DNA from: Candidatus Heimdallarchaeota archaeon
Lineage (GTDB): Archaea; Asgardarchaeota; Heimdallarchaeia; JABLTI01
NCBI GenBank assembly: GCA_019056785.1
Contig: DXJV01000029.1
Span: 59,615 to 123,614 of the forward strand
DNA: 64,000 nucleotides
Reading direction: 5' to 3'
This document shows, piece after piece, positions 7,784 to 39,407 of the stretch (its first letter is position 1; every line of letters starts with the position of its first letter). The translations under genes and the position numbers were made by a program. The notes under the pieces are model-generated. The model did not search any database. It saw only the letters and a list, made by a program, of their open reading frames with translations, and had not been told where the DNA came from.

Positions 7784-7947
7784 TAAATTCTATGATCAAA
7801 GATTTAAAAGTATAAATCTCGTAAATAATTACTAATAAAAATCAAATATAAGCATTCCCAATTAGGAAACAATAGAAAAAAAATGAGAATAAAACTAGAA
7901 TGATTAATATTCGTAATTGAATAGATAAGTTATAAAAATCGATCAGA

Positions 7948-8358
7948 GTGGTAGATGCTATGACTATAAGTACAATCGAGCTCCCATTACTTCTTAAAAA
8001 CCTCAAGAAAGTATTTGGTGAGAAAATTCACGGCCCAGTTAATTCTAATGTTCGAGAATACCAATTAGTTTGCGAACCAGAACATCTTCACCAAATAGCT
8101 AACTTTCTACTTGTTCGAGGTGTAAAGAAACTTGTCGCAATCAACGCCTGGCGAGAGAATCAACAGAAAGTTAAACTCGCCTATTATTTCATTGCAAAAA
8201 TTGGCCCAGATGGTTTGGATTCAAAAATTGCTGTAATTGTTGTTTTGGATCCAGATAAAAAAACACTCGAGTCCCTCACCGATTTATTTGTAAACGCCAG
8301 AATTTTCGAGAGTGAGATTAGTTCTAAACTCGATCTAAAGTTTCAAATAACTAAATAA
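7948..8358 (+). CDS. NuoC / complex I 30-kDa-subunit-like small protein, orphan
   Basis: 136 aa. Segment order REYQLVCEPEHL...LVAINAW...KVKLAYYFIAKI...IAVIVVLDPD...LTDLFVNARIFESEI parallels Nqo5/NuoC-like subunits of complex I and group 4 hydrogenases. No other respiratory subunit is adjacent. Confidence 0.4.
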   Translation: MVDAMTISTIELPLLLKNLKKVFGEKIHGPVNSNVREYQLVCEPEHLHQIANFLLVRGVKKLVAINAWRENQQKVKLAYYFIAKIGPDGLDSKIAVIVVLDPDKKTLESLTDLFVNARIFESEISSKLDLKFQITK

Positions 8359-8519
8359 AATCTCTGTTTTCAAAATAAATTCTACCTAAAATTGAGAAAG
8401 AAAAGTCGCTTTTATACTGCCTTTTGAGTAACATAAATTAATGACTTTTGTCTTTATGTTAATAGATATTATATTAAACAATATATTTCTAACAAACAAA
8501 CCAAAAAGGTTGGTTACTC

Positions 8520-10898
8520 TTGTCTAATGAAAAAAATGAAGAAGTCGAAAAAACAAATTCAGAAGAAAATTTGACAGAAGAACCAGTAGAAGCAAAAGAA
8601 GCAAAAGAACCAAAAGAAGAAGAGATTGAAACAGAAGAAACCAAAGAGGAACTAGAGATACCAGAGATACCACTAGAGGAAAGTTCAGAAGAAGAGATAA
8701 TTGAAGTAGCAACACCAACAGAAGAACCCGAGGTAGAAGAACTCCCAAAAGAAGAATACAGCTTTGAAGCAAAGAAAGCTAAACCTGTCAAAAAGAAGAA
8801 GAAAAAAGGGCCGCCATTTCTACTCAGCACTCTCATTGGTTTAGGCGTGGCCTTATTAATTGAGGTGCTATTCTCCATACCACTTTGGGTTGGAGGTGTT
8901 GGCAGACCAGACCTGTTTTATATAGAACTCGTACTTGTACTTATAGCGATGAGCATCCCCGGATTGTTTACCCGAAGCCTTCAAAAAGGGATCCTTGGGG
9001 CGTTCATGATTTTCATTGTAGCATTTGCTGTTCCATTACTACTCACAGTGCTTGGCTTAAAAGCCATTCTCAGTCCCCTCACACCGCTTTTTGCAAGCAC
9101 TGACTTTTCGCTTGATGCATTTCAGATATTCAAATCGCTTTTCCCTGCATTAGAAAATTTGCCAATAGCACAAATCCAAAAATGGATCTGGATAGTCGAC
9201 CTTGTGCTAATGTTCATCCTGACAATCTTTGTTGTGGTGATTATAACAGCTTTGATCAAAAGCATCACCAAGAAAAAGAAGAAAGTTGGGACATGGATTG
9301 CTATTCCATTGCTAAGTATTGGCTTGATTATTTTTGCAGTGTTCACACCAATTATCTTCTCTTCAACATATGGTATTATTCAAGCAAGTACATCATTTCT
9401 AGCCGGTGCCACAAAAATGCAGGAAGCCTATGGCGTCTTTGAGGGAACAGGTTCCACGCCAAGCACCCAGGCAATGGAATGGATGCAAAACAATTTATCA
9501 GAAGCCAATTATTGGTTAAATATTTCTCGAGTCAATTATAAAGGATTACAAAATATTGGACTAATTAGAATTGCCGTTCTGGTCTCAGGACAATATGGAC
9601 CGTTAATAGAAGCAGGCGATCAGCTGGCCTTAGCAACAATGGCAATGACTGGCATTTTACTGCCACTTTTTACCGGGATTTATGATTTAACTCAAAGTTT
9701 AGAAAATGCCACGAATGACATGGCGAATTTCGGTTCCTCCTCGAGTGCAACGAGTGCAAAAAATGTTCTCACCCAACTTTCAACTAAAAGTTTAGAAGAT
9801 ATAGACCAACTGAAAGAGGACATTATTCGCGCTATTGAAGGGCTTGATAAGGCTGAAAATGCCCTCAATATTATTCAGCAACGAATTGCCCAACAAGATA
9901 TACAAGGATCTTTTGATGAAGTTAAAGCAAAGTTAGAGAGCATTAATATTGCCGAACTTCCAGCCAAGGTGGGCGATATCATAAACGAGATTCGAGTTCG
10001 TTTAGACCAATTCGACGGGCAATTAGAAGGATTTGTAAATTTCATAAGTTATACAGCTGATAACTTGGAACCAACAAAGAAAATCCTCTGGGCGTCTTAT
10101 AATACTATTGTGGGAAATGAATATTTAAAACTCAGACGATTTAAGAATGCTGCAGATGCCTTTACCTATGCTTACCAAAATATTTCAGCAATAAGTGGTA
10201 TTGCCACATACACACCAACCGGCAATCTTACAAACATTTTTGCAGCAGCTATAACGGAAGATTTCACCTTCCTGTTAAATGACCTTATAGGGATAATGTC
10301 ACCACTCTTACAAGAAGAGATTGCATTCGCACAAACCTACGATGAAATAACAAAAATTATGCGGGCCTTTGCAGCTGAAGCGGATATCTCTCAAGTTGAT
10401 TACTCGTCTCTAAGTACACCACTTGCAACAGCAAACAGCACAGATGTCTATGGTGCAATAGCACAAAGTGCTCTCGATGCTTTCAGAACCAAACTTCAAA
10501 ATACAACCTTTGGCTCGATGTTCAACAACATCGGCACACGTTTTGATAAGATTCTCACCGATGACTTTAGACCGCTCGAATTTGGGATCATGACGAAGTT
10601 CATGGGGACAATTGTTGCATATTATTTAACCAGCTGCGAAAGCTATGCTAACCAATATTTCACAGAAGCAATTAACAACATAACAATCGCCGATAATATT
10701 ATGACAAACGATCTTTTACCCATTCTCAACGTCAATGATCCTCGCTATCTTCAAGACTATTATAATAATTGGTCTCTTGCTCTTGGAGAACTTAAGATAA
10801 AAATGGAGACATACAACACTCCCGCAAACTATAGCAATGGGCTTACTGCAATACAGGATACAATTCTAGTCCTTTATGCAAATGTTGAAGAAAAATAA
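8520..10898 (+). CDS. Large polytopic membrane protein: acidic cytoplasmic N-terminus, ~6 TM helices, ~450-aa probably extracellular glycosylated domain
   Basis: 792 aa. Residues 1-90 are extremely Glu-rich, followed by a K6 stretch, then hydrophobic helices. The C-terminal alpha-rich domain carries more than 10 N-x-S/T sequons. Confidence 0.6.
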   Translation: MSNEKNEEVEKTNSEENLTEEPVEAKEAKEPKEEEIETEETKEELEIPEIPLEESSEEEIIEVATPTEEPEVEELPKEEYSFEAKKAKPVKKKKKKGPPFLLSTLIGLGVALLIEVLFSIPLWVGGVGRPDLFYIELVLVLIAMSIPGLFTRSLQKGILGAFMIFIVAFAVPLLLTVLGLKAILSPLTPLFASTDFSLDAFQIFKSLFPALENLPIAQIQKWIWIVDLVLMFILTIFVVVIITALIKSITKKKKKVGTWIAIPLLSIGLIIFAVFTPIIFSSTYGIIQASTSFLAGATKMQEAYGVFEGTGSTPSTQAMEWMQNNLSEANYWLNISRVNYKGLQNIGLIRIAVLVSGQYGPLIEAGDQLALATMAMTGILLPLFTGIYDLTQSLENATNDMANFGSSSSATSAKNVLTQLSTKSLEDIDQLKEDIIRAIEGLDKAENALNIIQQRIAQQDIQGSFDEVKAKLESINIAELPAKVGDIINEIRVRLDQFDGQLEGFVNFISYTADNLEPTKKILWASYNTIVGNEYLKLRRFKNAADAFTYAYQNISAISGIATYTPTGNLTNIFAAAITEDFTFLLNDLIGIMSPLLQEEIAFAQTYDEITKIMRAFAAEADISQVDYSSLSTPLATANSTDVYGAIAQSALDAFRTKLQNTTFGSMFNNIGTRFDKILTDDFRPLEFGIMTKFMGTIVAYYLTSCESYANQYFTEAINNITIADNIMTNDLLPILNVNDPRYLQDYYNNWSLALGELKIKMETYNTPANYSNGLTAIQDTILVLYANVEEK

Positions 10899-10947: not shown

Positions 10948-11766
10948 TTAATCAGTTTCTTCTGCTTCTAGTTCTGTTATGGGGTAGAAATAGCGCCGCT
11001 CTTTAAGGTAACCACCTAAGAGCCCTCCAGTAAATGCCATTATCGAAAACAACAAGAAAAAGAGTATGGAATTGAAGACTAATTCTGTTAGAGTTTCCCA
11101 TTCTCTTGAAAAGAATGCCACAAATAAGACAAAAATCAATATCACTGACACAAAGGAAGCTATTATACCGAATTTCCTTTCTCCGGCAATCAGTCCGCCT
11201 ACAAAACCGGCAATAATAAATCCAATCAACAGGATAATTAAACCAACAATATTACCGCCATTGGGGATAGCGGATTTAATGATGCCAATGAGGAAGTAAT
11301 AGGCAATAAAAAAGAGGCCAATAGTTACCATAGAGGTTATTGCTCCTGAGAGCGTTGAAATCACTGTGCGAGCAGCAACTGTTCCCTTGAGTCGTTCAAC
11401 AAGAACCTCATCAAATGTTCTAAAGGGAGAAACATCTGTTGTGGAATCCTTCAAGATGTCCTCGTATTTTTGTCTAAACATCTTCAGAATGTCAAGAAGA
11501 GTTTTGTTTATAAGAGGTTCGTAGTCCTTGGAATGGCAAATGGCAGCAATAATGAATCGGTCATCTGTTTTATAAGCGAGCTTTCTATCAAGTCCTTCAA
11601 TAGCTGAAATATCAACTAACCCCGCTTCACTTGAGAAATTACGAAAAGCAAGCAAGAGACCAGAAACGAGTTGTTCATCAATGGTTTTTTCTTTAGACTC
11701 GTGATACCAATCATAAATACAAATGCCACTATTTAAATCGATGATCCATACATTTTCAATTGCCAA
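10948..11766 (-). CDS. Membrane protein with N-terminal roadblock/longin-like (profilin-like fold) domain
   Basis: 272 aa. The N-terminal ~115 aa (VWIIDLNSGICIYDW...LVSGLLLAFRNFSSEAG...RFIIAAICHS...) has the beta-alpha-beta-beta-alpha pattern and the hhhxxxSGIxI signature shared with the Roadblock protein at 52590-53054. The C-terminal half is 4-5 TM helices. Confidence 0.45.
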   Translation of the reverse strand: MAIENVWIIDLNSGICIYDWYHESKEKTIDEQLVSGLLLAFRNFSSEAGLVDISAIEGLDRKLAYKTDDRFIIAAICHSKDYEPLINKTLLDILKMFRQKYEDILKDSTTDVSPFRTFDEVLVERLKGTVAARTVISTLSGAITSMVTIGLFFIAYYFLIGIIKSAIPNGGNIVGLIILLIGFIIAGFVGGLIAGERKFGIIASFVSVILIFVLFVAFFSREWETLTELVFNSILFFLLFSIMAFTGGLLGGYLKERRYFYPITELEAEETD

Positions 11767-11980
11767 AAACTTTCAACCACACATTGAAATTTATATAACT
11801 ATTTATAGGTTATTGGCTTTATTTTCTTTTTGGATAAGAACTCTCCTTGAAGATAAGCAGATTGGAGGAGCGCCCAGAGATTCCGACAAAAACTCTGAAA
11901 AGGAAATTACCTCAAACGCAAGCTTATTAATGCGCGAATGAATAGTTCATACAATAAAAAATTGCAGGAGATCACACCCT

Positions 11981-12394
11981 ATGGAATTAATCGAATGTAC
12001 TAAAGTACATATACAAGATGCTTTGAATTCACCAATCCTCCCACAAAATGTTAAGAACGATTTAAAAGATTCCGGAGAAACCTTTCTTTCAGTTTATAGT
12101 AAAAAAAGCAAGTCACTTCGATTTTTCCCCATTAAGGACGAAAATATTTATTGGCTTAAAATTGCGATTGATAGTTTTAACCCTGAAATAAGCGGGAAAA
12201 TCCTCGCAAAATTAAGTAGCCTTATCTCTCAATTTGTTTATTCAACAGGTGTCTGTGTTTCGAAAAGTGAATGCTTTTGGGATGGAATTATTCTCGAGTC
12301 AGCATTTAAGAATTCAAAAGAAAATCTCATCAAAACGCTTGAAGAAATACCCAATGTCATCAATGTCACATTAAAACCGGTCGCCAAAGAATAA
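11981..12394 (+). CDS. Hypothetical protein, possibly ACT-like
   Basis: 137 aa. NPEISGKILAKLSSLISQ...GVCV weakly resembles an ACT ligand-binding fold. Confidence 0.3.
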   Translation: MELIECTKVHIQDALNSPILPQNVKNDLKDSGETFLSVYSKKSKSLRFFPIKDENIYWLKIAIDSFNPEISGKILAKLSSLISQFVYSTGVCVSKSECFWDGIILESAFKNSKENLIKTLEEIPNVINVTLKPVAKE

Positions 12395-12450
12395 AAAGAA
12401 GAAAAAAGGTCTGTAATACGACCTAGTTATTTTATTGCTTTTTTTCGCAA

Positions 12451-12882
12451 CTAAATGTCCATTTCTTTAATTCTATTTACCAAGAAACGATTCATGACAA
12501 TCCAATATTCAACTTCAGCTGTTTTACCTGCATCTATTATCTCGTGAAGCTTTGCAAGGTGATTTGGGTCAGTCGGTTTCGGAATAGAAAGTGTCTCGTA
12601 CGTTTCATTATCCATTACTGACATTTCCTCACCTTCTAAGGAAATTACTTGTGCGTTGCGTTTGTCAATTATTGGTACTTGAACTTTTGCAGTAGAAGGC
12701 ATAACTGGTGATCGCTTCTTTTTATCAAAAAGACCAATAACTTCCATTCTTATTTTCGCATGACCATGTTTGCCGGTTTTTGAGTGGCTCAAATCTAGGA
12801 CCTGACATGGTTCTCCATCAACAAGTATATAACTTCCTCTTTTGATTGAATTTGCATCAGCCGGTCGTGTTGACATTTTCAT
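12451..12882 (-). CDS. eif5a: Translation initiation factor 5A (aIF5A)
   Basis: 143 aa. Hypusine loop SKTGKHGHAK and an OB-fold C-terminus; strong similarity to aIF5A/eIF5A. Confidence 0.9.
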   Translation of the reverse strand: MKMSTRPADANSIKRGSYILVDGEPCQVLDLSHSKTGKHGHAKIRMEVIGLFDKKKRSPVMPSTAKVQVPIIDKRNAQVISLEGEEMSVMDNETYETLSIPKPTDPNHLAKLHEIIDAGKTAEVEYWIVMNRFLVNRIKEMDI

Positions 12883-13071
12883 TCACTTTTTTAATTAATA
12901 TAGTTTGACTTACGAACTTCAGCATTAAAGTTTTTTGTTCTTTTTTACCTTTTCTTCTGAACAAAATAATGCGTAAATTCTGTTTTCAAGCCTTCAAAAG
13001 AACTTTTATTTTTAAGGATAAATATATAACATTTAAATTGATTTATAAAGTGTTAACAAAAGGATTAGAAA

Positions 13072-16002
13072 GTGATTGTTGTGCAGCAAGATGTTTGGCA
13101 AAAACGAACATTTTTCGGAGCTTTCCTCCTAGTTTCAGTAGCTCTTTGTCTAATTGCCACTCAATATACCGCTTGCAACAACATATCAGCTTCCCTTTGG
13201 GATAAAGCACTACCAATGAGAGAGAGGAAAACTACCAATGCATTTCAAATGCTTGGGCCTTATTCTGCTGACAGTTTTATCACTAATGGAGAGGAAAACG
13301 ATGCCAATACCGGCGGTGATGCAGGAGACTCGATTGCTTTTGCAACAAATATCACAGAAGGAACGTATAATGGAACTTTAACCGATGGTGATAAAGACTA
13401 TTACCGATTTAATGTTAAAACAGGGGTTATTATTAATGTTTCAATGATCCCGTTGAATCTTTCAATTAATTTTGATTTGACATTATATTCGCCGGAGTCC
13501 AGCCCACTAATCCATGATTATAAGGATGCCGGCCTTCGCGAAACATTAATCTGGTCGACAGCAAGCTCAGGCAATTTCACCATCTCCATTCTCCCTACTA
13601 CACCAAGTGATATTGGTAATTATAGTTTTACAATTATATTAACAGCACAAAATGACTTCAACACTCAAACAGATGCAGGAAACTCGTTCGGTGATGCCAT
13701 TTTAATTACAAGTGGCTCATCTTATGGAAAATTGGTTGAAACTAGTGATACTAACGACTTTTACAAGATTGCAATCCAAAAAGGACAGATTATCAGCATT
13801 TTACTCGAGTCAGAAAACACAACTAATTTAGACCTTTATCTCCTTGACAAAGAAAGCGTCCAGCTTGATAGCTCGACAAAATTAACCGGGGTCAACGAAT
13901 CAATTTATCATGCCATTAATCAAGAGAACAATTATATTATTCAGATTGTTTTTATTGAATCGTCTATTGGAGAAGTAATTGTCAATTACAATCTCACAAT
14001 CAGTATTACCACCCAAAATGACGGCAATTCTGGCACTGATGCTGGGGACAATGTTGACGATGCTCTTTATATTATCCCCCTAAGCGATTCGAAATTCAAA
14101 GGGCGCGTTGTATATAATGGCGATAGAGCAGATTTTTACAAGTTTGACGTCACAAAGCCTACCAATATTATTGCCGTATTATTAGTTGACGATTTAGTGA
14201 ATCTGGACTTGAAACTTTATGATGTGAACAAAGTATTATTGTATTCTTCAGAGGAAGAGTACCCCGGTGCAACAGAAGCAATTACAGATGTGATCCTCAA
14301 CAATGGAACTTATTACATTTCCATCGAATTTGTTGCTTGGGAAGTGGGGGTTCCACTCACAGCCACTTACACGCTAAATATCGGCTTGTTGCCGCTTGGG
14401 AATAATAATGGAAACCAACACACTGCGGGGGAGATAATTATGATGGTCATAACATATGGTGTATTACCAATTTTTCTCATAGTAATTATTATCCTGTTGC
14501 TCTATGTCTTTACAGACGTTAAAATACCCGGAATCTCTAATTGGCTTAACAAATATCTAAGTAAAGAGAACAAAGGGGAAACAGTCAAATCACTAAAATA
14601 TGCCTTGAAAGTTCGAGAAGAACAAATAAACACACTTCGAGAAGAATCAATACAAAAAGATGCAAAACGCGCCAAGGATTTAGAGACAATTCATCGCTTA
14701 GAAGAGGATCAAAAGTCAAAGGAAAAAGTAATTGAAAAATTGCGAGAAGAGAATAATACAATGAAAAGAGATTTGGACAATCTCGCCGTAGTCAGTGAAG
14801 ATTTAGCGAATATTATTGATAGCACTATTCGAAGGCAACTAGCAAAACAAAATACAAATAAAGTAAAAATCTCCACGATTACATCACTCCTTTGGCTGCC
14901 GGAAGAACGATTGATAAATTATCTCCATTCTGTTAAATTATTAAGTGAGCGTTATATCTTTGATAAAAACAAAAATTACATTATAACTCGAGAGTATGCT
15001 CGTGAAACTGTCCGGCAAGCATACTGGAAGCGGGTTGGAGCAATGCATCTAAAGAAGATAAAGCAGGTTAAAATTTCTAACCTTGCAGATGACACGAACA
15101 TTGATATTGACACTTTGAAAGGAATCATTCGGGAATTAGTCGAACGAAAAGAAATACCTGCACCAATTCACATGGACCGGGTGTCACTCTTATTGTCTAT
15201 TTCAGACGAACTTATTGCCGAGCTTGCTGAGGTTGCACAAAACACCCCGGTAATTTCGCTAAAAGAGCTTTCCGAGTCTTATGATACTTCTTGCGAGAGT
15301 GCGAGAGTTATCCTCCAAAAAATCGCAGAAGAAGAATACACCAAAGGTGAATTTATTAGTGATGATATCTTCATCGTCTACGACCTTTTTGCGAAGAAAA
15401 TTATCAAAGAAGGAAGCATCGAACTTTCAAAATTCATTAAGGAGAACAAACTCGAAAATTTGCTCGAAGAAACCAAGATCATAATCGAAAAATTGATTCA
15501 AGCAGGTCAGCTTGAAGGTGAATATCTAACAGAAGACATGTTCCTCTGCTTCAATAACCTTACAGAGCCCGTAAAGAATCTAATAAAGGAAAGTATTGAA
15601 GACATTCGAAACGGAAATACCCGCAAAGTAGTCTTTGATATCGGGAGTGTTGTTGAATCAATTGTAAAAGAACGCTTAATCTTAGACATCCATGAATTTG
15701 ACGATGTTGATAAACTACCAAAGTATCAAGAAGTAATTGAAGCAAAAGAACTGGGACGTATTTTACGAGCAGCAGAAGACTGTAAGATTACGTTGCCAGC
15801 GAATGTTGAGTTAAAGTCTCTCAACAGATTTTGGGCTCAGAAAATTAAACATACAAAACCTGGAGAACTCCCCTATAACCCAACAATTAAAGAAGCACGT
15901 GAATTCTTGTTTGAAGCTAATAAAGCATTGAATAAACTTCTCGAGCAAAAAATCCCCAAGAATTGGAAGAAGAAAATAGCAGCAAAACTAAGCAAAGATT
16001 GA
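13072..16002 (+). CDS. Secreted/transmembrane protein: signal peptide, 3-4 PPC-like repeats, one TM helix, cytoplasmic coiled coil plus tandem winged-helix-like repeats
   Basis: 976 aa. Repeated motif N(D)xxTGGDAGDxxxxA...DGDKDYYRF / DTNDFYKI / GDRADFYKF matches pre-peptidase C-terminal (PPC) domains. Many NxS/T sequons. TM helix IIMMVITYGVLPIFLIVIIILLLYVF. The C-terminal ~470 aa have coiled-coil heptads and repeated ~70-aa helix-turn-helix/winged-helix-like units. Confidence 0.6.
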   Translation: MIVVQQDVWQKRTFFGAFLLVSVALCLIATQYTACNNISASLWDKALPMRERKTTNAFQMLGPYSADSFITNGEENDANTGGDAGDSIAFATNITEGTYNGTLTDGDKDYYRFNVKTGVIINVSMIPLNLSINFDLTLYSPESSPLIHDYKDAGLRETLIWSTASSGNFTISILPTTPSDIGNYSFTIILTAQNDFNTQTDAGNSFGDAILITSGSSYGKLVETSDTNDFYKIAIQKGQIISILLESENTTNLDLYLLDKESVQLDSSTKLTGVNESIYHAINQENNYIIQIVFIESSIGEVIVNYNLTISITTQNDGNSGTDAGDNVDDALYIIPLSDSKFKGRVVYNGDRADFYKFDVTKPTNIIAVLLVDDLVNLDLKLYDVNKVLLYSSEEEYPGATEAITDVILNNGTYYISIEFVAWEVGVPLTATYTLNIGLLPLGNNNGNQHTAGEIIMMVITYGVLPIFLIVIIILLLYVFTDVKIPGISNWLNKYLSKENKGETVKSLKYALKVREEQINTLREESIQKDAKRAKDLETIHRLEEDQKSKEKVIEKLREENNTMKRDLDNLAVVSEDLANIIDSTIRRQLAKQNTNKVKISTITSLLWLPEERLINYLHSVKLLSERYIFDKNKNYIITREYARETVRQAYWKRVGAMHLKKIKQVKISNLADDTNIDIDTLKGIIRELVERKEIPAPIHMDRVSLLLSISDELIAELAEVAQNTPVISLKELSESYDTSCESARVILQKIAEEEYTKGEFISDDIFIVYDLFAKKIIKEGSIELSKFIKENKLENLLEETKIIIEKLIQAGQLEGEYLTEDMFLCFNNLTEPVKNLIKESIEDIRNGNTRKVVFDIGSVVESIVKERLILDIHEFDDVDKLPKYQEVIEAKELGRILRAAEDCKITLPANVELKSLNRFWAQKIKHTKPGELPYNPTIKEAREFLFEANKALNKLLEQKIPKNWKKKIAAKLSKD

Positions 16003-31979: not shown

Positions 31980-33428
31980 ATGAGTCAACATGGAACCAGT
32001 AATCTAAATCCGAAACAACTCGAAAAATTAGCCGAAAAAGCAAAAGAACTAGGATATGACAATCTGAGGTTTTTTGTCGATGATATTGACATGTTGTTGC
32101 GCCCGGCTGTTCTTTTGAAACAAAAAGATATGAAATATTTCGAGTTGGAAAACCTCATTTCCTTGCTAACGAGTAAAAATATTAGCCTGGGAATGGCGCC
32201 CCGGATGTTAAGTATGGTATCAAAATACGCTGAAAGAAATGAAGAATTAGAAGCAGAAAACGCAGAATTAAAGCAATCAAATATAACTATGCGAAGTAAA
32301 TACCAAACTGCTGAAGCCCAGGTAAAAGAATATCAAAAGCAACTTAAAGAACTCTCTGTTGGCGTCCAAGCTGATGCTAAAATCCGAGAAGAGAATATAA
32401 AACTTAGTGAAGAGAATAAGTATCTAAAAATCACAAATGAATCTCTCACCGGAGAACTAAAGAAAACCAAAGAAAAACTCGACGAGAAAATTGAAGAAGC
32501 AAATGATCTTGAAGTTGAAAATAGCCAGTTAGAATTAAAGATTAAAGACCTCCAGAGAGAATTGAAAGAATTGGAGTTGGAATATGAAGAACTAAAACGA
32601 GAAGGTATTGGTACCGATAAGACAAAACGACTCGTTGAGGACTTAATTGATGAAGTAGATGAAGCCTATAGTACTGTAGACGACCCCTTTAAGAAGGAAT
32701 TCTTGGCATTTATGGGTGTGGAATTGAGCGAAATCGTTGAGGGACGAACTATTACAAAACAAAAAATTCTCAATCAAATAGCGATTCATGCACACGAAAT
32801 TGAAAAAAAATTCGAGCCAAAAATAGCAGCTTTGCAACAAATGCCTGCCCGCAGTGCTACACCTCAACCGGTAATCAAAGAACCAAGAGAGGTTATGAAG
32901 AAAGAAGTTATTCCTGAACCCGTGAAAAAAACCGCTCCAGTTGCAGTTAAAAAAGGACAACCTGCTGAAGCGCCTTCAAAACAAAAGGCCAAGGAAGAAA
33001 CCGAAGACCATTATGTGAAACCAAGTGAATTCTTGAAGAAAAAAGGCATCATCGTAAGTAGTGGAAAAGAACCTGCAAAAACAGAAGAAGCGAAAGAAAA
33101 AGGTGAAGAACACGCAGAAAAAACACCTGCAAAACCCGCTACCACTGTTTCACGTTCCAAACGTAAATTTAAGAAGAAAGTGGAAATCGACCGCACACCA
33201 AGCCCTGAATTGATTCAGGTCTTTGACGTATTTATAAAATATCTTGAAGCTATAACTGACAATAAATCATTTAATGACCTGTGCGACAAAATAATCGAGC
33301 AACTTTATGAACACATTGGCTCTCCCGGCATGACACAAGTTTACAAAATAAAAAGTAGTGGCGTGAAAAGAAAACAATTATTGATCGACCTAATAAAACA
33401 GTGGAAAGTGAGACTGCCTGACCTCTAA
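31980..33428 (+). CDS. Long coiled-coil protein with a K/E/P-rich linker and a small C-terminal globular domain
   Basis: 482 aa. Residues ~95-230 are heptad-rich (ELEAENAELKQ...LELKIKDLQRELKELELEYEELKRE). Low-complexity P/K/E linker. C-terminal ~90 aa helical domain. Confidence 0.6.
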   Translation: MSQHGTSNLNPKQLEKLAEKAKELGYDNLRFFVDDIDMLLRPAVLLKQKDMKYFELENLISLLTSKNISLGMAPRMLSMVSKYAERNEELEAENAELKQSNITMRSKYQTAEAQVKEYQKQLKELSVGVQADAKIREENIKLSEENKYLKITNESLTGELKKTKEKLDEKIEEANDLEVENSQLELKIKDLQRELKELELEYEELKREGIGTDKTKRLVEDLIDEVDEAYSTVDDPFKKEFLAFMGVELSEIVEGRTITKQKILNQIAIHAHEIEKKFEPKIAALQQMPARSATPQPVIKEPREVMKKEVIPEPVKKTAPVAVKKGQPAEAPSKQKAKEETEDHYVKPSEFLKKKGIIVSSGKEPAKTEEAKEKGEEHAEKTPAKPATTVSRSKRKFKKKVEIDRTPSPELIQVFDVFIKYLEAITDNKSFNDLCDKIIEQLYEHIGSPGMTQVYKIKSSGVKRKQLLIDLIKQWKVRLPDL

Positions 33429-33475: not shown

Positions 33476-34123
33476 TTATAAGATAATCTGGATTTTCTGA
33501 TGGATCGCGTAAGAAGACATACCACCTGAATCGAAGCGAAGACGAATCAATTTAGACTTGTCTTGTCCGTGAATAGCAATGACTTTTCCGGTGACCTTAG
33601 TCTCACTTTCAGGATATTTTAAAATGAATTTTTTACCTATCAATGTCTTATGGTTATAGTCATCCAAAACTCTTGCAATTGCTTGATTGGTTTTTTGAAG
33701 CCTTTTGTCTCGTCGATAGCTAGTTATAATTGCGCTAATAAATTTGACTTTCTTTGATTTTGGTTTAGTGGTTGGCTTGGGTTTGGTTGTAGTGGAGGTC
33801 TTTGACTTTGTGCGTGTGCTTTTCTTTGTAGCGGTTGTTTTTACTTTTGGGGTGGTCTTTTTAGCCGTCGTTGGTTTTTTAGCTGCAGTGGTCTTTTTAG
33901 TTGTAGCCGGTTTTTTTGTTGTAGAAGTCTTTTTGGCTGGTGAAGTGCTCTTTTTAGTGGTAGTGGCTTTTTTTGTCGTTGTGGAAGTTTTAGTGGAAGA
34001 TTTTTTCGCGGGTGTTTTTTTAGTGGAGGTTTGTTTTGTAGATGCTTTTTTGGTTGTGGTTGTTTTAGCAGCAGGTTTCTTTGCAGAGGTGCTTTTTGAA
34101 GTGGTTTTTTTCTTTTCTGGCAT
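33476..34123 (-). CDS. rpl35ae: Ribosomal protein L35Ae with a ~125-aa N-terminal Lys/Thr/Ala-rich low-complexity extension
   Basis: The C-terminal 90 aa (IITSYRRDKRLQKTNQAIARV...GKVIAIHGQDKSKLIRLRFDSGGMSSYAIHQKIQIIL) align with archaeal and eukaryotic L35Ae (SYRR, GK(I/V)xxxHG, RxRFxxxxPxxAIGxxIxV). The N-terminal part is (T/S/A)KK(P/T) hexapeptide-like repeats. Confidence 0.75.
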   Translation of the reverse strand: MPEKKKTTSKSTSAKKPAAKTTTTKKASTKQTSTKKTPAKKSSTKTSTTTKKATTTKKSTSPAKKTSTTKKPATTKKTTAAKKPTTAKKTTPKVKTTATKKSTRTKSKTSTTTKPKPTTKPKSKKVKFISAIITSYRRDKRLQKTNQAIARVLDDYNHKTLIGKKFILKYPESETKVTGKVIAIHGQDKSKLIRLRFDSGGMSSYAIHQKIQIIL

Positions 34124-34201
34124 AACAAATCACTCTAAGTTATTATTCGATAGGTAGAGGACAAAAGATGTCATTCAAAAATCTTTTCTCTGTGATTAAT
34201 T

Positions 34202-35605
34202 TTATTTTGCTATTTTCTTGTCCTCTACTGCAAGAAGGACACTCTCCAGCGAAATTAGAAAGTTCTCTATCTCACTTTTTTCAACAGTAATCAGTCGCCC
34301 GGGTTGATGAACGAGAATATTCCGTTTTTTCCGGACATTATTAATAGCTTCCTCTTGTTCTTTAGTTAAGAGGTCACGCTCGCGTAAGAATTGCAAGATC
34401 ATATTAAAATTGGTATAAATCTCCACAGGAGCACCGAAGCGTTCTATAAGGCTTTTGAATAATTGCTCTGCAGAACGGAAAAGAAAAACCAAAGCGGTAG
34501 CACGTTCTTCCTCTGAAATTTCGTCCCAATGTTTAAGACGGTTTTTGACATACTCAATATCCGTCTTTAAGGAAACGACCTCATGTTCGTAACTGAATAC
34601 ATGCCGAGCAATATCATAAAACGGGCTTTCAAAGAACCGGTCCTTTATTACGGCAGTTTGTTTTGCCGAAACTTTTAATTGGTCCAAAATCGGCTTGTAA
34701 ATGCGCCATGCTTGTTGTTTCGCAACAAAATTGTTGGCGTAATTTCTCAGCGCCTCTGATAAAGGTTCCTCGTATTCTTGCTGATAGATAGGATCAATCC
34801 GACGAGCGAAACGTCTGAGAGTGGTCTCTCCAACTAACCCTTCTATTGGGAATTGGCTAACAGCACGAATGTAGTTGTTTCTATTCAGCCGTTCTTCTTC
34901 ATTTGGCGGCATAACTATAGGCAATGTCTCAAGGATCAGTTTTCTTAATCTACCGATAGAATAGAAAGCAAGAAGGTCGCTGAGAAAAGTAAGAACAGTA
35001 AATAGAATAGTGAAAATGATAACATTCACAATATTATCAATTTTATCAAGAACTAAAAAGTCTAGAACAATTGGCCTGAAATGTAAATAGATAATGCCAA
35101 TCAAATCTGCCAAAGATAAAATGGACCAAATAATTGAAAAGAGAAACAAAGTCTCAAAACTACTTAAGAGGTTATTTTTTCTATTAACCTGGCTTTGGCT
35201 AATATATGAATCAATATATAGCTCACGCACACGGGCCACAAGCGGGGGAACAAGCTCCTTTTCAATGGCAGCACGAATCTTTTCTTTTTGGGTTCTTGTA
35301 AGGCTTGCTTCATCATCTGAGAAGATAAAAAGCTCGTCGATATTTTCTTTTAATTTTGACTCGTAATGTTTTCCAACGCCACTAATAAAGTAGATTAACA
35401 TTGGAGAAATCATGTAGATAAAAAGTGCAGGTGCAATCAACATTAAAGCCCAGAGAATAAAGCCCCAGTTGGGGGTTATTCCTTTTGCCAGAAGATAAAT
35501 AGCATAGACAATAAATTCCAGCACAATAGGAGCGTAGACTCCAAGAAGAAAGCGTTGATTGAATAAAGCATTGGTTATTTTCGACCGCCAGTTATTGGTT
35601 CCCAT
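34202..35605 (-). CDS. 4-TM membrane protein with C-terminal HEPN-like domain (Rx4H motif; DUF4145-like)
   Basis: 467 aa. Two TM hairpins (residues ~20-75 and ~150-215). The C-terminal helical domain contains NNVRKKRNILVHQPG, which matches R-x4-6-H of HEPN RNase-like domains. Confidence 0.5.
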   Translation of the reverse strand: MGTNNWRSKITNALFNQRFLLGVYAPIVLEFIVYAIYLLAKGITPNWGFILWALMLIAPALFIYMISPMLIYFISGVGKHYESKLKENIDELFIFSDDEASLTRTQKEKIRAAIEKELVPPLVARVRELYIDSYISQSQVNRKNNLLSSFETLFLFSIIWSILSLADLIGIIYLHFRPIVLDFLVLDKIDNIVNVIIFTILFTVLTFLSDLLAFYSIGRLRKLILETLPIVMPPNEEERLNRNNYIRAVSQFPIEGLVGETTLRRFARRIDPIYQQEYEEPLSEALRNYANNFVAKQQAWRIYKPILDQLKVSAKQTAVIKDRFFESPFYDIARHVFSYEHEVVSLKTDIEYVKNRLKHWDEISEEERATALVFLFRSAEQLFKSLIERFGAPVEIYTNFNMILQFLRERDLLTKEQEEAINNVRKKRNILVHQPGRLITVEKSEIENFLISLESVLLAVEDKKIAK

Positions 35606-35733
35606 GAAAAAGCACCTTTTATTACCTTAAAGCGAAGAACTATTTTTAATACATCTTAGTGTTATTAGGTTAAATAGTCTTTGATGATTAATAAAAGTGG
35701 AACTGTGAGGGATAGGCCATCCAGCAACAAAAA

Positions 35734-37113
35734 GTGATCAAAAACGAAGAAACACTCATTAATATAGAAAAAGACCCCTTAATTAAAAGGGGAAGAAAAC
35801 TACTCCTCGAGCTAATCGCCACTGGCATTCAAGCAGCAGACCCTTTTAAAGCCGTACAAAAACATGTCAAATTGGAAGGAAGAACAATAAGAATCGCTAC
35901 CAAATGGGAACGAGATATCTCTTCTTTTGAGAATGTAATTATTGTAGGAGCCGGGAAGGCCTCAGCCAAAATGGCTTTGGCTCTTGAAAAAATTCTGGGA
36001 GAGGAAAACATCACAAAAGGCTTAGTAAATGTTCCATCAGAAACCGTGAGCAATTTAACTGGAACATCAAAAATAAGATTCCATCCCGCCGGACATCCCG
36101 TGGCTACTAAGGCTTCTCTCGAGGGGACTAAGGAAATCATTAAATTAATTTCAGGATTAACACGAAATGACCTTGTCATTTGTGTGATTAGTGGAGGCGG
36201 TTCTGCCATGCTGGAGCTGCCGATAGCAGGTATCACTCTCAACGATTTTTCCACTGTTTTTAATTTATTGACACAGAAAGGGGCAACTATTTATGAATTG
36301 AATGCCTTTCGCAAACATTTATCACAAGTGAAAGGAGGGCGATTGGCAAAAATAGCCCGGCCAGCGGAGGTTGTTTCACTAATAATAAGCGATGTTGTCG
36401 GCGATGACCTATCGACCATTGCTTCTGGACCCACTGCTCCAGATAAAACAAGCTGGCATGATCTAATGACAATTATGAAAAAATATGCTCTTACAGCGGC
36501 ACTTCCACAAACAGTAATACAGCTGATTGAAAAGGGCGTTAAAAGAGAGCTTGCAGAGACCCTTAGAGCAACCGACCCGGTTTTTATGCGGGTATATAAT
36601 TTCTTAATTGCATCTAATACACTTTCCTGTCATGCGATAAAACAGGCTGCCTTAGGAAAAGGTTTTACAGCGAGAATTGTTTCGACAACACTAACAGGTG
36701 AAGCCCGGTTAGTAGGAGAAAAGTTAGCCGAAGAACTCCTCCATAGTGAGAAAAACAATGTGCTAATTGCGGGAGGGGAAACTACAGTAACCATTACCGG
36801 AAAAGGAATTGGCGGACGAAATCAAGAGCTGGCCTTAGCCGCAGCAACACATTTGAGCAACAAGGAAGGGATTTTTTTTGCAGCGGTTGGTTCTGATGGA
36901 AAAGATGGGCCGACAGATGCCGCAGGAGCAATCATCGACTATCAGACAATCTTAAAAGGAGTGAAGAAAGGATTGAGGGCTGAAACCTTTTTACTTGATA
37001 ATAATTCTTACGCTTTTCTAAAGGAAACAAATTCATTAATACTTACAGGACCCACCGGCACAAATGTGAGTGACCTCTTTCTGGGCGTACACCTGGCCCG
37101 AAAAGCCGAATAA
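35734..37113 (+). CDS. Glycerate kinase, MOFRL family (glycerate 2-kinase/hydroxypyruvate reductase-like)
   Basis: 459 aa. N-terminal IIVGAGKASAKMA (DUF4147) and C-terminal MOFRL motifs GGETTVTITGKGIGGRNQE and GSDGKDGPTDAAGA. Confidence 0.85.
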   Translation: MIKNEETLINIEKDPLIKRGRKLLLELIATGIQAADPFKAVQKHVKLEGRTIRIATKWERDISSFENVIIVGAGKASAKMALALEKILGEENITKGLVNVPSETVSNLTGTSKIRFHPAGHPVATKASLEGTKEIIKLISGLTRNDLVICVISGGGSAMLELPIAGITLNDFSTVFNLLTQKGATIYELNAFRKHLSQVKGGRLAKIARPAEVVSLIISDVVGDDLSTIASGPTAPDKTSWHDLMTIMKKYALTAALPQTVIQLIEKGVKRELAETLRATDPVFMRVYNFLIASNTLSCHAIKQAALGKGFTARIVSTTLTGEARLVGEKLAEELLHSEKNNVLIAGGETTVTITGKGIGGRNQELALAAATHLSNKEGIFFAAVGSDGKDGPTDAAGAIIDYQTILKGVKKGLRAETFLLDNNSYAFLKETNSLILTGPTGTNVSDLFLGVHLARKAE

Positions 37114-37254: not shown

Positions 37255-38448
37255 GTGTGTTTAAAGTTGTCGAATTCGTCGTTGTATCAATATGCCTCTA
37301 AATATGCACAAAAAGCCTATGAACAAGATAAAGCTGGAAATTACAAAGCAGCACATCAAAATTATTTGAAAGCTGCAGAAGTGTTGCAACAGCTCATCCA
37401 ATTCACAAGCAATCCCCAATTAAAAAACATGTACTATGTTAAAGCAAAAGAATATCTTGCTCGCGCAAAGGAGCTAAAAGATATGGGAATGCAACCGGTA
37501 GAAGGGGGGAGACGGAGAAGCTCAAGAAAGGGCAGCCGGGGAGGTGACAGTGGAGGGGATGAAGAAGAGGATGAACTTGAAGAGGCTATCTCGGAAATTA
37601 TCATCGTGGAAAAACCCAACGTGAAAATGAGCCAGGTGGCAGGATTAGAAGAAGCAAAGAGAGCCTTGCGAGAAGCAATCATCCTACCAATGAAACGACC
37701 CGACCTTTTTAAAGGCGCTCGAAACCCATGGCGAGGCATCTTACTTTTTGGCCCACCAGGTACCGGGAAAACATTATTAGCAAGAGCAGTTGCAACAGAA
37801 GTAGATGCAACCTTTTTTAACGTGAGTGCCTCAAGTATTATCTCGAAATGGCTGGGAGAATCGGAGAAACTGGTTCAACAGCTGTTTGAAACAGCCCAGG
37901 AAAAACAACCCTCGCTCATTTTCATAGATGAAGTAGATAGCATTGCTTCTGCAAGAGGTGGAAGCGAACATGATGCAATGCGCCGTGTGAAAACAACTTT
38001 GATGACCCAGATGGACGGAGTAACAACAAAGAAATCAGACCGGATTGTAGTTATAGGTGCAACTAACCTCCCATGGGAACTCGACCCGGCCTTTCGAAGC
38101 AGATTTGAAAAGCGCATCTATATTAATTTGCCTGATTTTCCTGCACGAGCGAAAATTTTTGAAATCCACACAAAAGGAGTAGAAATCGACCAGACAGTCG
38201 ATTGGAACCTCCTTGCTGAGGTAAGCGAGGGCTATTCAGGAAGAGACATTCAGCTGCTCTGTAGAGAAGCAGTAATGATGCCGGTAAGAGAACTTGATAT
38301 TGCAGGTGCTTTGGACAATCCCGACATTAAAGCCAGGGCAGTAACAATCGACGACTTTATGTTAGCAATGGAGAAAATCAAACCCAGCGTTGCTCCTGAA
38401 GAACTTCTGAAGCACAGAGACTGGGCAGAAGAATTTGGAAGCGTCTAG
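37255..38448 (+). CDS. vps4: Vps4-like AAA+ ATPase (MIT domain + AAA ATPase + Vps4_C); ESCRT/Cdv ATPase
   Basis: 397 aa. N-terminal MIT three-helix bundle (YASKYAQKAYEQDKAGNYKAAHQNYLKAAEVLQQL...YVKAKEYLARAKELK), Walker A GPPGTGKT, Walker B LIFIDEVD, SRF second region of homology, C-terminal Vps4_C helix. Confidence 0.9.
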   Translation: MCLKLSNSSLYQYASKYAQKAYEQDKAGNYKAAHQNYLKAAEVLQQLIQFTSNPQLKNMYYVKAKEYLARAKELKDMGMQPVEGGRRRSSRKGSRGGDSGGDEEEDELEEAISEIIIVEKPNVKMSQVAGLEEAKRALREAIILPMKRPDLFKGARNPWRGILLFGPPGTGKTLLARAVATEVDATFFNVSASSIISKWLGESEKLVQQLFETAQEKQPSLIFIDEVDSIASARGGSEHDAMRRVKTTLMTQMDGVTTKKSDRIVVIGATNLPWELDPAFRSRFEKRIYINLPDFPARAKIFEIHTKGVEIDQTVDWNLLAEVSEGYSGRDIQLLCREAVMMPVRELDIAGALDNPDIKARAVTIDDFMLAMEKIKPSVAPEELLKHRDWAEEFGSV

Positions 38449-38570: not shown

Positions 38571-39407
38571 ATGTCAGTAAAACAAAAGAAGAAGAAAACG
38601 AAAGCAAAAACAAAAAAGAAGACAACGCAAAAAGAGCAGACAGTACAAGAGGAGCAGCCGTTACAACAACAAGAACTGCAAGAAGAGAAAACACAACCTG
38701 CGAAATCCACCTTAGAGAGCAAACCGCCTCGCGAAGCAACTGTAACTATTTCCTTGATAGAAAACCCAGTCACAACAGAAGATAAGATTTACAATGCATT
38801 ATTACGGATAGAGCAGCTAATACAATCAGATGTAGCTATTTCCCGTGAGGATCTTTTTGACTTAGGAGAGGATGTTGAAAGACAGCTTTTGGAAATTCTT
38901 CCGGAATGGATTAATAAACCCTGGATGTATGTCACCCCCGAACACCAGAAACAACTCGATTCCTGGTGTGCAGATTGGTCCAATTTCATTATGGAATATG
39001 CCCGCATTAATATTAAACACATTATTCACATCGAAGAAGAACGAGCGAAATATCCATTCAATAATAAACAAATAAAGAAACGATTAGACAGAAAGCAATT
39101 TCAAACGATAGGTGATTATATAGTCGCCCAGGAGATGGGCATTTGGTGGGATAAGAAAAAAATTCGCCTCCGTCTCTATTGGCGAACATTGGATGAATGG
39201 GCGGACATTATTTATGAGTGGAGTTTGAAAACAGGGCGTGCGGCCGGCCCCGAAAGAGTCATGACTTTGCTAGATATTCAAGAGGCAGGCCAACCATGGA
39301 GCACCATACCGGTCGAGGACCTGAAACGAATTTTTGAGATCATGAAAGAAAAAGGATATATTGAATGGGCTGATAAAAAGAAAACAGCTATTGCTTTTAT
39401 TATCTGA
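38571..39407 (+). CDS. vps25: ESCRT-II subunit Vps25/EAP20 homolog (tandem winged helix) with Lys/Gln/Glu-rich N-terminal extension
   Basis: 278 aa. HQKQLDSWCADW...PFNNKQIKKRL...GIWWDKKKIRLRLYWRTLDEWADIIYEWSLKTG aligns with human Vps25 (RQKQLAAWCSLV...PLFNNVKLQRKL...LEWLDKSKSSFLIMWRRPEEWGKLIYQWVSRSG). The first ~60 aa are a charged low-complexity extension. Confidence 0.8.
   Translation: MSVKQKKKKTKAKTKKKTTQKEQTVQEEQPLQQQELQEEKTQPAKSTLESKPPREATVTISLIENPVTTEDKIYNALLRIEQLIQSDVAISREDLFDLGEDVERQLLEILPEWINKPWMYVTPEHQKQLDSWCADWSNFIMEYARINIKHIIHIEEERAKYPFNNKQIKKRLDRKQFQTIGDYIVAQEMGIWWDKKKIRLRLYWRTLDEWADIIYEWSLKTGRAAGPERVMTLLDIQEAGQPWSTIPVEDLKRIFEIMKEKGYIEWADKKKTAIAFII

Follow-up and report, generated by a model that had tools for sequence, protein, structure and literature searches.

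What is the function of a stand-alone gene in an Asgard archaeon whose product is embedded in the membrane and ends in a motif typical of HEPN ribonucleases (RNases)? The gene in question lies at 34202–35605 on the minus strand of a 64,000 nt stretch of a Candidatus Heimdallarchaeota archaeon genome (contig DXJV01000029.1, positions 59,615–123,614 of the forward strand; the whole stretch is referred to here as the window). A first-pass annotation had described its product as two pairs of transmembrane (TM) helices followed by a cytoplasmic helical domain with a C-terminal, HEPN-like R-x4-H motif, and had placed it in abortive-infection (Abi) and toxin contexts. The open reading frame (ORF) was confirmed with exactly these coordinates in the ORF list; it starts with ATG and encodes 467 amino acids (aa) which, together with the homologues, show an organisation of four TM helices (4TM), a linker and a HEPN domain, and the protein is therefore called HEPN-4TM below. 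Converging evidence, without a single decisive score, identifies the C-terminal domain as HEPN, with its catalytic signature intact. The family is a new Asgard-specific architecture within the known HEPN superfamily. The reading that we favour, at a probability of about 0.55, is that of a housekeeping or stress-gated, membrane-tethered and metal-independent endoRNase of Heimdallarchaeia and not of an Abi toxin, with the protein probably cutting RNA on the cytoplasmic side of the cell membrane.

The HEPN domain and its catalytic signature

The core of the HEPN domain spans residues 340–466 (34208–34588; all features of the gene are on the minus strand), as delimited by the AlphaFold (AF2) model, Foldseek and the Pfam hits in family members, and the C-terminus of the protein reads NNVRKKRNILVHQPG. 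The predicted catalytic motif R425-K-K-R428-N429-I-L-V-H433 (RKKRNILVH in the translation) is located at 34307–34333. A bare Rx4H is uninformative, because it was frequent in shuffled versions of the window protein (Rx4H in 33%, Rx4-6H in 70% and RNx3H in 2% of shuffles), and it is the conservation together with the fold that makes the motif real. Conservation was assessed in 58 full-length HEPN-bearing members, which form 22 clusters at 45% identity and reach down to ~21% identity, and R425, R428, N429 and H433 were each present in 58/58. The RNILVH residues singled out by the first-pass annotation are thus invariant at R428, N429 and H433, and the R/H pair that it had flagged is conserved throughout the family.

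Catalytic HEPN domains have been defined by Rx4-6H with a polar residue (N, D or H) after the arginine, plus an Ex3[KR] motif (PMC3710099). The latter corresponds to E380-Q-L-F-K384 at 34454–34468, with E380 conserved in 55/58 and a lysine or arginine at position 384 in 54/58 members; D349 was also found in 55/58. The domain therefore displays the four-helix, up-down, all-alpha fold and both conserved motifs of the HEPN superfamily (Pfam clan CL0291; Anantharaman et al. 2013). The residues following H433 take the form H-(Q/E/R/K)-(S/P)-G, with serine or proline at the second position after the histidine in 50/58 members and the subsequent glycine also in 50/58, and without a tyrosine. Another candidate for the catalytic motif, R334-x6-H341 (RHVFSYEH), was rejected, as it is kept in the close clade only and not family-wide.

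Profile searches pointed to the same superfamily. The HEPN-family Pfam hits of the window protein were all located at residues 380–461 and all sub-threshold (E-values of 0.015 for HepT-like, 0.032 for RiboL-PSP and 0.051 for Swt1), its two non-HEPN Pfam matches fell outside these residues, DUF4145 gave no match at E≤1 and did not reach the gathering threshold, and the only relevant NCBIfam match was HepT_toxin (E=0.061). When 26 diverse family members were scanned one by one, Pfam matches were found to HepT-like in 11 members, to DUF4145 in 10 (at E≤0.1), to RiboL-PSP in seven, to Swt1 in three and to HEPN in one, with the best E-values among the relatives being 8.4e-7 for DUF4145 (PF13643), the top Pfam score in the family, and 1.5e-4 for HepT-like. 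All recurrent C-terminal matches were to HEPN-clan families, DUF4145 included, in line with the assignment made in the first-pass annotation, and the sole recurrent non-HEPN match was Dynein_AAA_lid, found in 5/26 members at a position corresponding to residues 131–167 of the window protein.

For the whole protein, the AlphaFold model was of mediocre quality, with a predicted local distance difference test score (pLDDT) of 67.7, and still matched 2hsb and 7bxo_F with Foldseek probabilities of 0.99–1.0. Modelling of residues 286–467 with a 26-sequence alignment gave a pLDDT of 87.8 and a predicted TM-score (pTM) of 0.72, and the top 20 Foldseek matches of this model in the PDB were all HEPN proteins, comprising the HepT toxins 7ae6, 5yep, 6m6w and 7bxo, as well as AF_0298 (2hsb), YutE (1ylm), 1wty, TM0613 (1o3u) and Csm6'. 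For 19 of the 20 matches the probability was 0.89–1.0 and the target TM-score 0.50–0.71, with Csm6' scoring 0.77 and 0.22, respectively; the E-values ranged from 0.04 to 0.5. A HMMER alignment of the family profile with HepT SO_3166 placed R-N-x3-H in register with the RNIAVH of that toxin, and searches of PDB sequences with full-length and C-terminal profiles gave nothing significant, with HepT at E-values of 0.4–0.6. Matches to the PDB sequences of CNTF and eS17 in these searches (E=0.07–0.3) were judged to be due to chance.

The membrane module and its relatives

A hydropathy scan identified four strongly hydrophobic segments at residues ~18–40, 48–75, 146–176 and 191–217. Lysine and arginine residues are concentrated in the loop of residues 76–145, which contains 12 of these, versus one and two in the two short outer loops, and this distribution predicts an N-in/C-in topology in which the insert of residues 76–145 is cytoplasmic, as is the entire part of the protein beyond residue 218, with only ~7 and 14 residues exposed on the outside. 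The two helix pairs and the cytoplasmic location of the helical domain proposed in the first-pass annotation are hence both supported by the hydropathy and the charge distribution.

TM1 (residues ~18–40, 35486–35554) contains P26, conserved in 56/58 members with gaps in the other two, and Y37 (55/58), and is followed by TM2 (residues ~48–75, 35381–35464), which has a hydropathy peak of 2.3 and is helical in the AF2 model. The cytoplasmic insert between TM2 and TM3 (35171–35380) is also predicted to be helical and includes Y130, which is invariant (58/58), as is E151 at the cytoplasmic end of TM3 (residues ~146–176, 35078–35170). The short outer loop between TM3 and TM4 (residues 177–190, 35036–35077) is modelled as a beta-hairpin, with strands at residues 179–181 and 184–186, and contains D187 (56/58) and I189 (58/58), while TM4 (residues ~191–217, 34955–35035) reaches a hydropathy peak of 2.35. 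A cytoplasmic region at 34589–34954, assigned from the AF2 model and conservation, connects TM4 to the HEPN core and consists of a juxtamembrane linker of low model confidence (residues 218–285) and three helices (residues 287–336); it contains an AKxxAWRxY motif, with W300 conserved in 50/58 and Y303 in 56/58 members.

The N-terminal 230 residues gave no Pfam match in any of the 26 members scanned. The 4TM module is previously undescribed, and in distant relatives it is paired with other enzymatic heads: a distantly related sister subfamily has the same module with different C-termini. In P0075, the HEPN domain is followed by a helix-hairpin-helix (HhH) domain (HHH_5, E=8.9e-8), which would fit a nucleic-acid substrate, in P0080 and P0088 a trypsin-like peptidase takes the place of the HEPN domain (Trypsin_2, E=4.6e-6), P0076, which is labelled Odinarchaeota, has the 4TM module without a HEPN domain, and P0081 has a HEPN C-terminus of the RNSFAHRAY type. 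Such varied C-termini suggest that the 4TM module is a unit of its own, serving as anchor or sensor independently of the attached head.

As a separate observation, the family profile showed a faint likeness to eukaryotic eS17 (PDB 6xu6_AR, E=0.07) over residues ~169–251 (~34853–35101 in the window), with the strings LDF, GRLR and EEERxxRxNY in common. This is curious given the ribosomal-protein neighbours of the gene, but as the region covers TM3 and TM4 the likeness probably arose by chance.

Distribution, conservation and gene neighbourhoods

We found 35 close homologues with 59–99% identity, and the 1.84 billion cluster representatives of a library clustered at 50%, searched exhaustively with a profile, yielded 48 representatives; a second profile search with a broader alignment mainly recovered close relatives, with P0057 as sole addition. 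Members with a taxon name were almost all from Asgard archaea, and the HEPN-bearing members with an informative label were Gerd-, Heimdall-, Kari- and Hodarchaeal, all of the Heimdall supergroup. Named members include the Gerdarchaeota protein RLI69503.1, which shares a 90% cluster with the window protein, OLS16422.1 of Heimdallarchaeota LC_3, and members from Kariarchaeaceae and Hodarchaeales, with a few members carrying a generic Asgard label only. Three labels were discordant ("Thorarchaeota", "Zixibacteria" and "Bathyarchaeia"), each on a near-identical sequence, and these look like binning errors. In a scan of GTDB representative genomes, which recovered close relatives only, the gene was present as a single copy in each of 10 genomes, a metagenome profile scan gave three loci, and two scans of IMG/VR viral contigs detected no copy. 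The gene is single, vertically inherited, strongly constrained and specific to Heimdall-supergroup Asgard archaea. The copy in metagenomic locus L024 was split over two ORFs on the plus strand (7902–8714 and 8727–9416, 270 and 229 aa) and is intact in the near-identical locus L023, and this split is either a frameshift or stop, making it a pseudogene, or an assembly error.

In the window, the gene is located between a gene for an L35Ae-like ribosomal protein and a glycerate-kinase-type gene, and no nucleotidyltransferase or antitoxin gene was found near it in the ORF list or with Pfam, as the first-pass annotation had also noted. The glycerate-kinase-type gene (35734–37113, plus strand; DUF4147 and MOFRL domains) is divergently oriented, and the 128 bp AT-rich intergenic region (35606–35733) is common to both genes and contains the sequence GGTG at 35613–35616, 7 nt ahead of the ATG of the HEPN gene. 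The first-pass annotation had overlooked the nearest notable neighbours, a Vps4 homologue (37255–38448, plus strand; MIT, AAA and Vps4_C domains) and an ESCRT-II subunit gene (38571–39407, plus strand), which lie 1.6–3 kb from the HEPN gene and indicate that the window belongs to an Asgard genome of Gerdarchaeota-like type. Among the ORFs scanned around these two genes there was none for ESCRT-III or ESCRT-I, Rfam gave no match in the 30–40 kb part of the window, the GC content of the region is ordinary, and the genes in the wider window are metabolic or housekeeping.

Downstream, the L35Ae-like ORF (33476–34123, minus strand; Ribosomal_L35Ae, E=2e-4, under the Pfam gathering score) has an N-terminal extension of ~125 aa with many K, T, S and P residues, which relatives lack or have in a far shorter form (105 aa in L001). 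At 34162–34186 (minus strand), between the stop codon of the HEPN gene and the start of the L35Ae-like ORF, lies a short inverted repeat (AAAAGAT...ATCTTTT, with a run of five T residues) that may represent an archaeal terminator, in which case the two genes would be transcribed separately. Beyond these lies a gene for a 482-aa coiled-coil protein (31980–33428, plus strand) without significant Pfam match, whose middle part is K/E/P-rich and whose C-terminal domain is conserved, and which is a constant neighbour in 13/13 syntenic loci at 56–66% identity.

The gene order LeuRS, S8 peptidase, ESCRT-II, Vps4, glycerate kinase, HEPN gene, L35Ae-like, 480-aa coiled-coil and TPR protein was found in 13/13 close-clade loci, with the glycerate kinase missing from L003, where the HEPN gene is directly divergent from Vps4. 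Identity to the window across the 13 loci was 59–72% for HEPN-4TM, compared with 62–76% for LeuRS, 80–87% for Vps4, 77–89% for ESCRT-II, 46–50% for glycerate kinase, 39–60% for the S8 peptidase and 35–51% for the TPR protein. The HEPN gene is therefore about as conserved as LeuRS, a level of constraint that would be expected for a core gene but not for a defence gene evolving at a high rate.

The ESCRT linkage is gone in the lineages further removed from the window, which also have no single conserved partner. Ribosomal-protein genes are neighbours of the HEPN gene in three lineages: in addition to the window clade with its L35Ae-like gene, these are L021, where the HEPN gene is immediately upstream of, and on the same strand as, an L32e-L19e-L18-S5-L30-L15-L40e cluster (11685–15544, plus strand), and L020 of Kariarchaeaceae, where L40e is located 1 kb upstream. 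A DnaJ gene is found directly downstream in L017, and a gene of the PAC2 family adjoins on the same strand in two sub-clades, upstream in L023 and L024 (7130–7924, plus strand, in L023) and downstream in L019 (3892–4296, plus strand), with the L023 and L019 PAC2 proteins too divergent for a mutual tblastn match. PAC2 proteins resemble proteasome assembly chaperones, and this adjacency may represent a functional link to proteostasis. Other flanking genes were SurE and GatDE in L016, GDPD in L022, and a helix-turn-helix (HTH) regulator and metallo-beta-lactamase (MBL) hydrolases in L014, and among the ~23 loci with flanks examined there was no nucleotidyltransferase, antitoxin or recognisable defence gene. 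Translation or proteostasis genes were among the neighbours in ~6 of the 9 independent contexts, a small sample which hints at a role in membrane-proximal translation or quality control.

A proposed membrane-tethered RNase and the alternatives to it

The favoured reading, a housekeeping or stress-gated endoRNase, would work as follows. An N-in 4TM module with almost no external surface is joined by a cytoplasmic linker of ~120 residues to the HEPN domain, and two or more membrane-anchored subunits would pair their HEPN domains, as HEPN active sites are composite and formed across a dimer. Once paired, the heads could cleave RNA on the cytoplasmic side of the membrane, with the 4TM module serving as anchor, as oligomerisation device and possibly as sensor or gate responding to the state of the membrane. 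Its role may be housekeeping or stress-regulated RNA processing or decay tied to membrane-proximal translation and proteostasis, and such a role is favoured over suicide or defence because the gene is single, vertically inherited and strongly constrained, and has no antitoxin. The results above establish the gene and its topology, the fold, the conservation of the motifs, the phyletic range, the synteny and the degree of constraint, and from these we infer the RNase activity, the dimerisation, the sensing and the targets.

Several observations weigh against this interpretation. The Pfam hits of the window protein stay under the gathering thresholds and the Foldseek E-values of 0.04–0.5 are modest; in the sister subfamily the HEPN domain is replaced by a trypsin-like protease (P0080 and P0088) or missing (P0076), a pattern common in conflict systems; and the split copy in L024, if it is not an assembly error, may mean that the gene is dispensable in some strains. 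Furthermore, the signal from translation and proteostasis neighbours comes from only ~9 independent contexts, and no operonic partner is conserved family-wide, which leaves the targets to guesswork.

The pattern of swapped heads (Trypsin_2, HEPN with HhH, or none) is also what would be expected if the protein were an Abi or toxin effector, in which the 4TM module senses a perturbation of the envelope by a virus and unleashes the HEPN RNase, so that the cell is arrested or killed. HEPN domains are often toxins, and membrane-associated HEPN proteins have been predicted to be signal-dependent RNases (PMC3710099). The closest structural matches are moreover HepT toxins (DUF86, PF01934; 5yep, 6m6w, 7bxo and 7ae6), which share the R-N-x3-H register and are the commonest Pfam match of the family. 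However, HepT is soluble and ~130 aa long, whereas HEPN-4TM has 467 aa and is membrane-embedded, and HepT is accompanied by an MNT antitoxin that AMPylates the tyrosine of Rx4HxY, whereas HEPN-4TM lacks the HxY and is not accompanied by an MNT gene at any locus examined, so that neither of the two hallmarks of HepT-MntA type VII toxin-antitoxin systems, the adjacent MNT gene and the Rx4HxY tyrosine, was found. PADLOC-DB v2 gave no match for the family even at E≤10, and the context is not that of a defence island; no MNT, antitoxin or other defence gene adjoins in the ~23 loci, and no copy was found on viral contigs. The gene sits in a fixed housekeeping block in 13 genomes with LeuRS-like conservation, and the 48 representative clusters among 1.84 billion proteins, with named members from Asgard archaea apart from the apparent binning errors, give no sign of horizontal spread. 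The toxin context raised by the first-pass annotation did not hold up in the light of these results, and we regard an Abi or toxin function as unlikely. A HEPN domain that does not cleave, and instead binds RNA, a nucleotide or a partner to regulate the membrane module as a channel, transporter or scaffold, appears quite unlikely. Some HEPN families only bind, such as MtlR and the C-termini of nucleotidyltransferases (PMC3710099), and two charged residues of the membrane module, E151 and D187, are conserved in their own right, suggesting more than anchoring, but such non-catalytic HEPN domains typically lose Rx4-6H (PMC3710099), whereas here R-N-x3-H is retained in 58/58 members, along with E380 and K/R384 in nearly all.

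An association with the Asgard ESCRT machinery, with RNA being degraded at sites of membrane remodelling or loaded into vesicles, is suggested by the presence of Vps4 and ESCRT-II within 1.6–3 kb in the window and in all 13 related loci, and by the direct divergence from Vps4 in L003. This linkage is confined to a single clade (≥59% identity) whose entire block, LeuRS and glycerate kinase included, is syntenic, there is no ESCRT gene within up to 10 kb on each side in L014, L016, L020, L021, L022 and L023, and a published survey of ESCRT neighbourhoods does not include such a component (PMC10936438), which makes an ESCRT accessory role improbable. Finally, the order of TM1-TM2, a large cytoplasmic insert, TM3-TM4 and a cytoplasmic tail resembles that of MotA, ExbB and TolQ, and together with the invariant membrane-proximal glutamate and a weak Foldseek match between the full-length model and MotA/PomA (8ucs_C, E=0.36, probability 0.54) it raises the possibility of a MotA/ExbB/ZorA-like, ion-driven stator linking the HEPN head to membrane energy or perturbation. 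The likeness is one of topology only, as the TM-scores were 0.16–0.25, none of the 26 members had a MotA_ExbB Pfam match or other profile support, PADLOC, which is expected to hold Zorya models, gave no match of any kind, and no locus contained a gene for a MotB/ExbD/ZorB-like partner; a stator is accordingly very improbable.

A membrane-tethered housekeeping or stress-gated RNase thus remains our preferred reading, and it has partial parallels among known proteins. For bacteria, three architectures of membrane-associated HEPN proteins, with either one or two TM helices, have been predicted (PMC3710099), including the single-TM 'WP' group of DUF4145, which like HEPN-4TM has a predicted cytoplasmic HEPN domain on an inner-membrane anchor and a proposed function in signal-dependent RNA degradation (PMC3710099). 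These bacterial groups have other N-terminal modules, unlike HEPN-4TM with its four TM helices, 70-residue insert and 120-residue linker, and the bacterial DUF4145 groups occur in restriction-modification (R-M) and Abi contexts, whereas the HEPN-4TM family is restricted to Asgard archaea and housekeeping contexts. No description of the family was found in the ESCRT survey mentioned above, in a 2026 survey of archaeal immunity (PMC12988326) or in a full-text literature search.

Another possibility, which we consider rather unlikely, is that HEPN-4TM takes the functional place in Heimdallarchaeia that membrane-tethered HEPN RNases of the Ire1 or C6orf70 type hold in eukaryotes. The catalytic residues R1056, N1057 and H1061 of Ire1 have the same spacing as the R-N-x3-H of HEPN-4TM. 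The eukaryotic proteins Ire1 and C6orf70 have been proposed to process RNA at membranes, and the Ire1 KEN domain and C6orf70 share with HEPN-4TM a membrane-anchored cytoplasmic HEPN domain (the related RNase L being soluble), the R-N-x3-H motif and a proposed gating of cleavage by oligomerisation (PMC3710099). Unlike Ire1 and RNase L, HEPN-4TM lacks a kinase domain and any sensor domain on the lumenal or external side, and neither the window protein nor 26 relatives gave Pfam matches to KEN (Ribonuc_2-5A) or kinase families, so that the relation is at superfamily level only and direct ancestry is unsupported. As an Ire1-like protein, the 4TM module would sense stress in the membrane or in membrane-protein folding and drive oligomerisation, upon which the HEPN heads would cut ribosome-associated or membrane-localised RNAs and relieve the load. 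Such a function would fit with the ribosomal-protein, PAC2 and DnaJ neighbours and with the restriction of the family to the archaea closest to eukaryotes, and would imply a stress-gated membrane RNA-decay pathway that is older than the endomembrane system.

HEPN RNases are mostly known as toxins or immune effectors, and here such a domain is found in a constrained, vertically inherited membrane protein without a partner, in a family restricted to the Heimdall supergroup, whose members are the archaea closest to eukaryotes. If HEPN-4TM is an active RNase, then membrane-tethered RNA cleavage exists in Heimdall archaea, for which Ire1 at the endoplasmic reticulum is the eukaryotic precedent, and the family would be a tractable candidate for membrane-linked control of RNA and proteostasis in Asgard cells, with clear catalytic-residue mutants available in a soluble domain.

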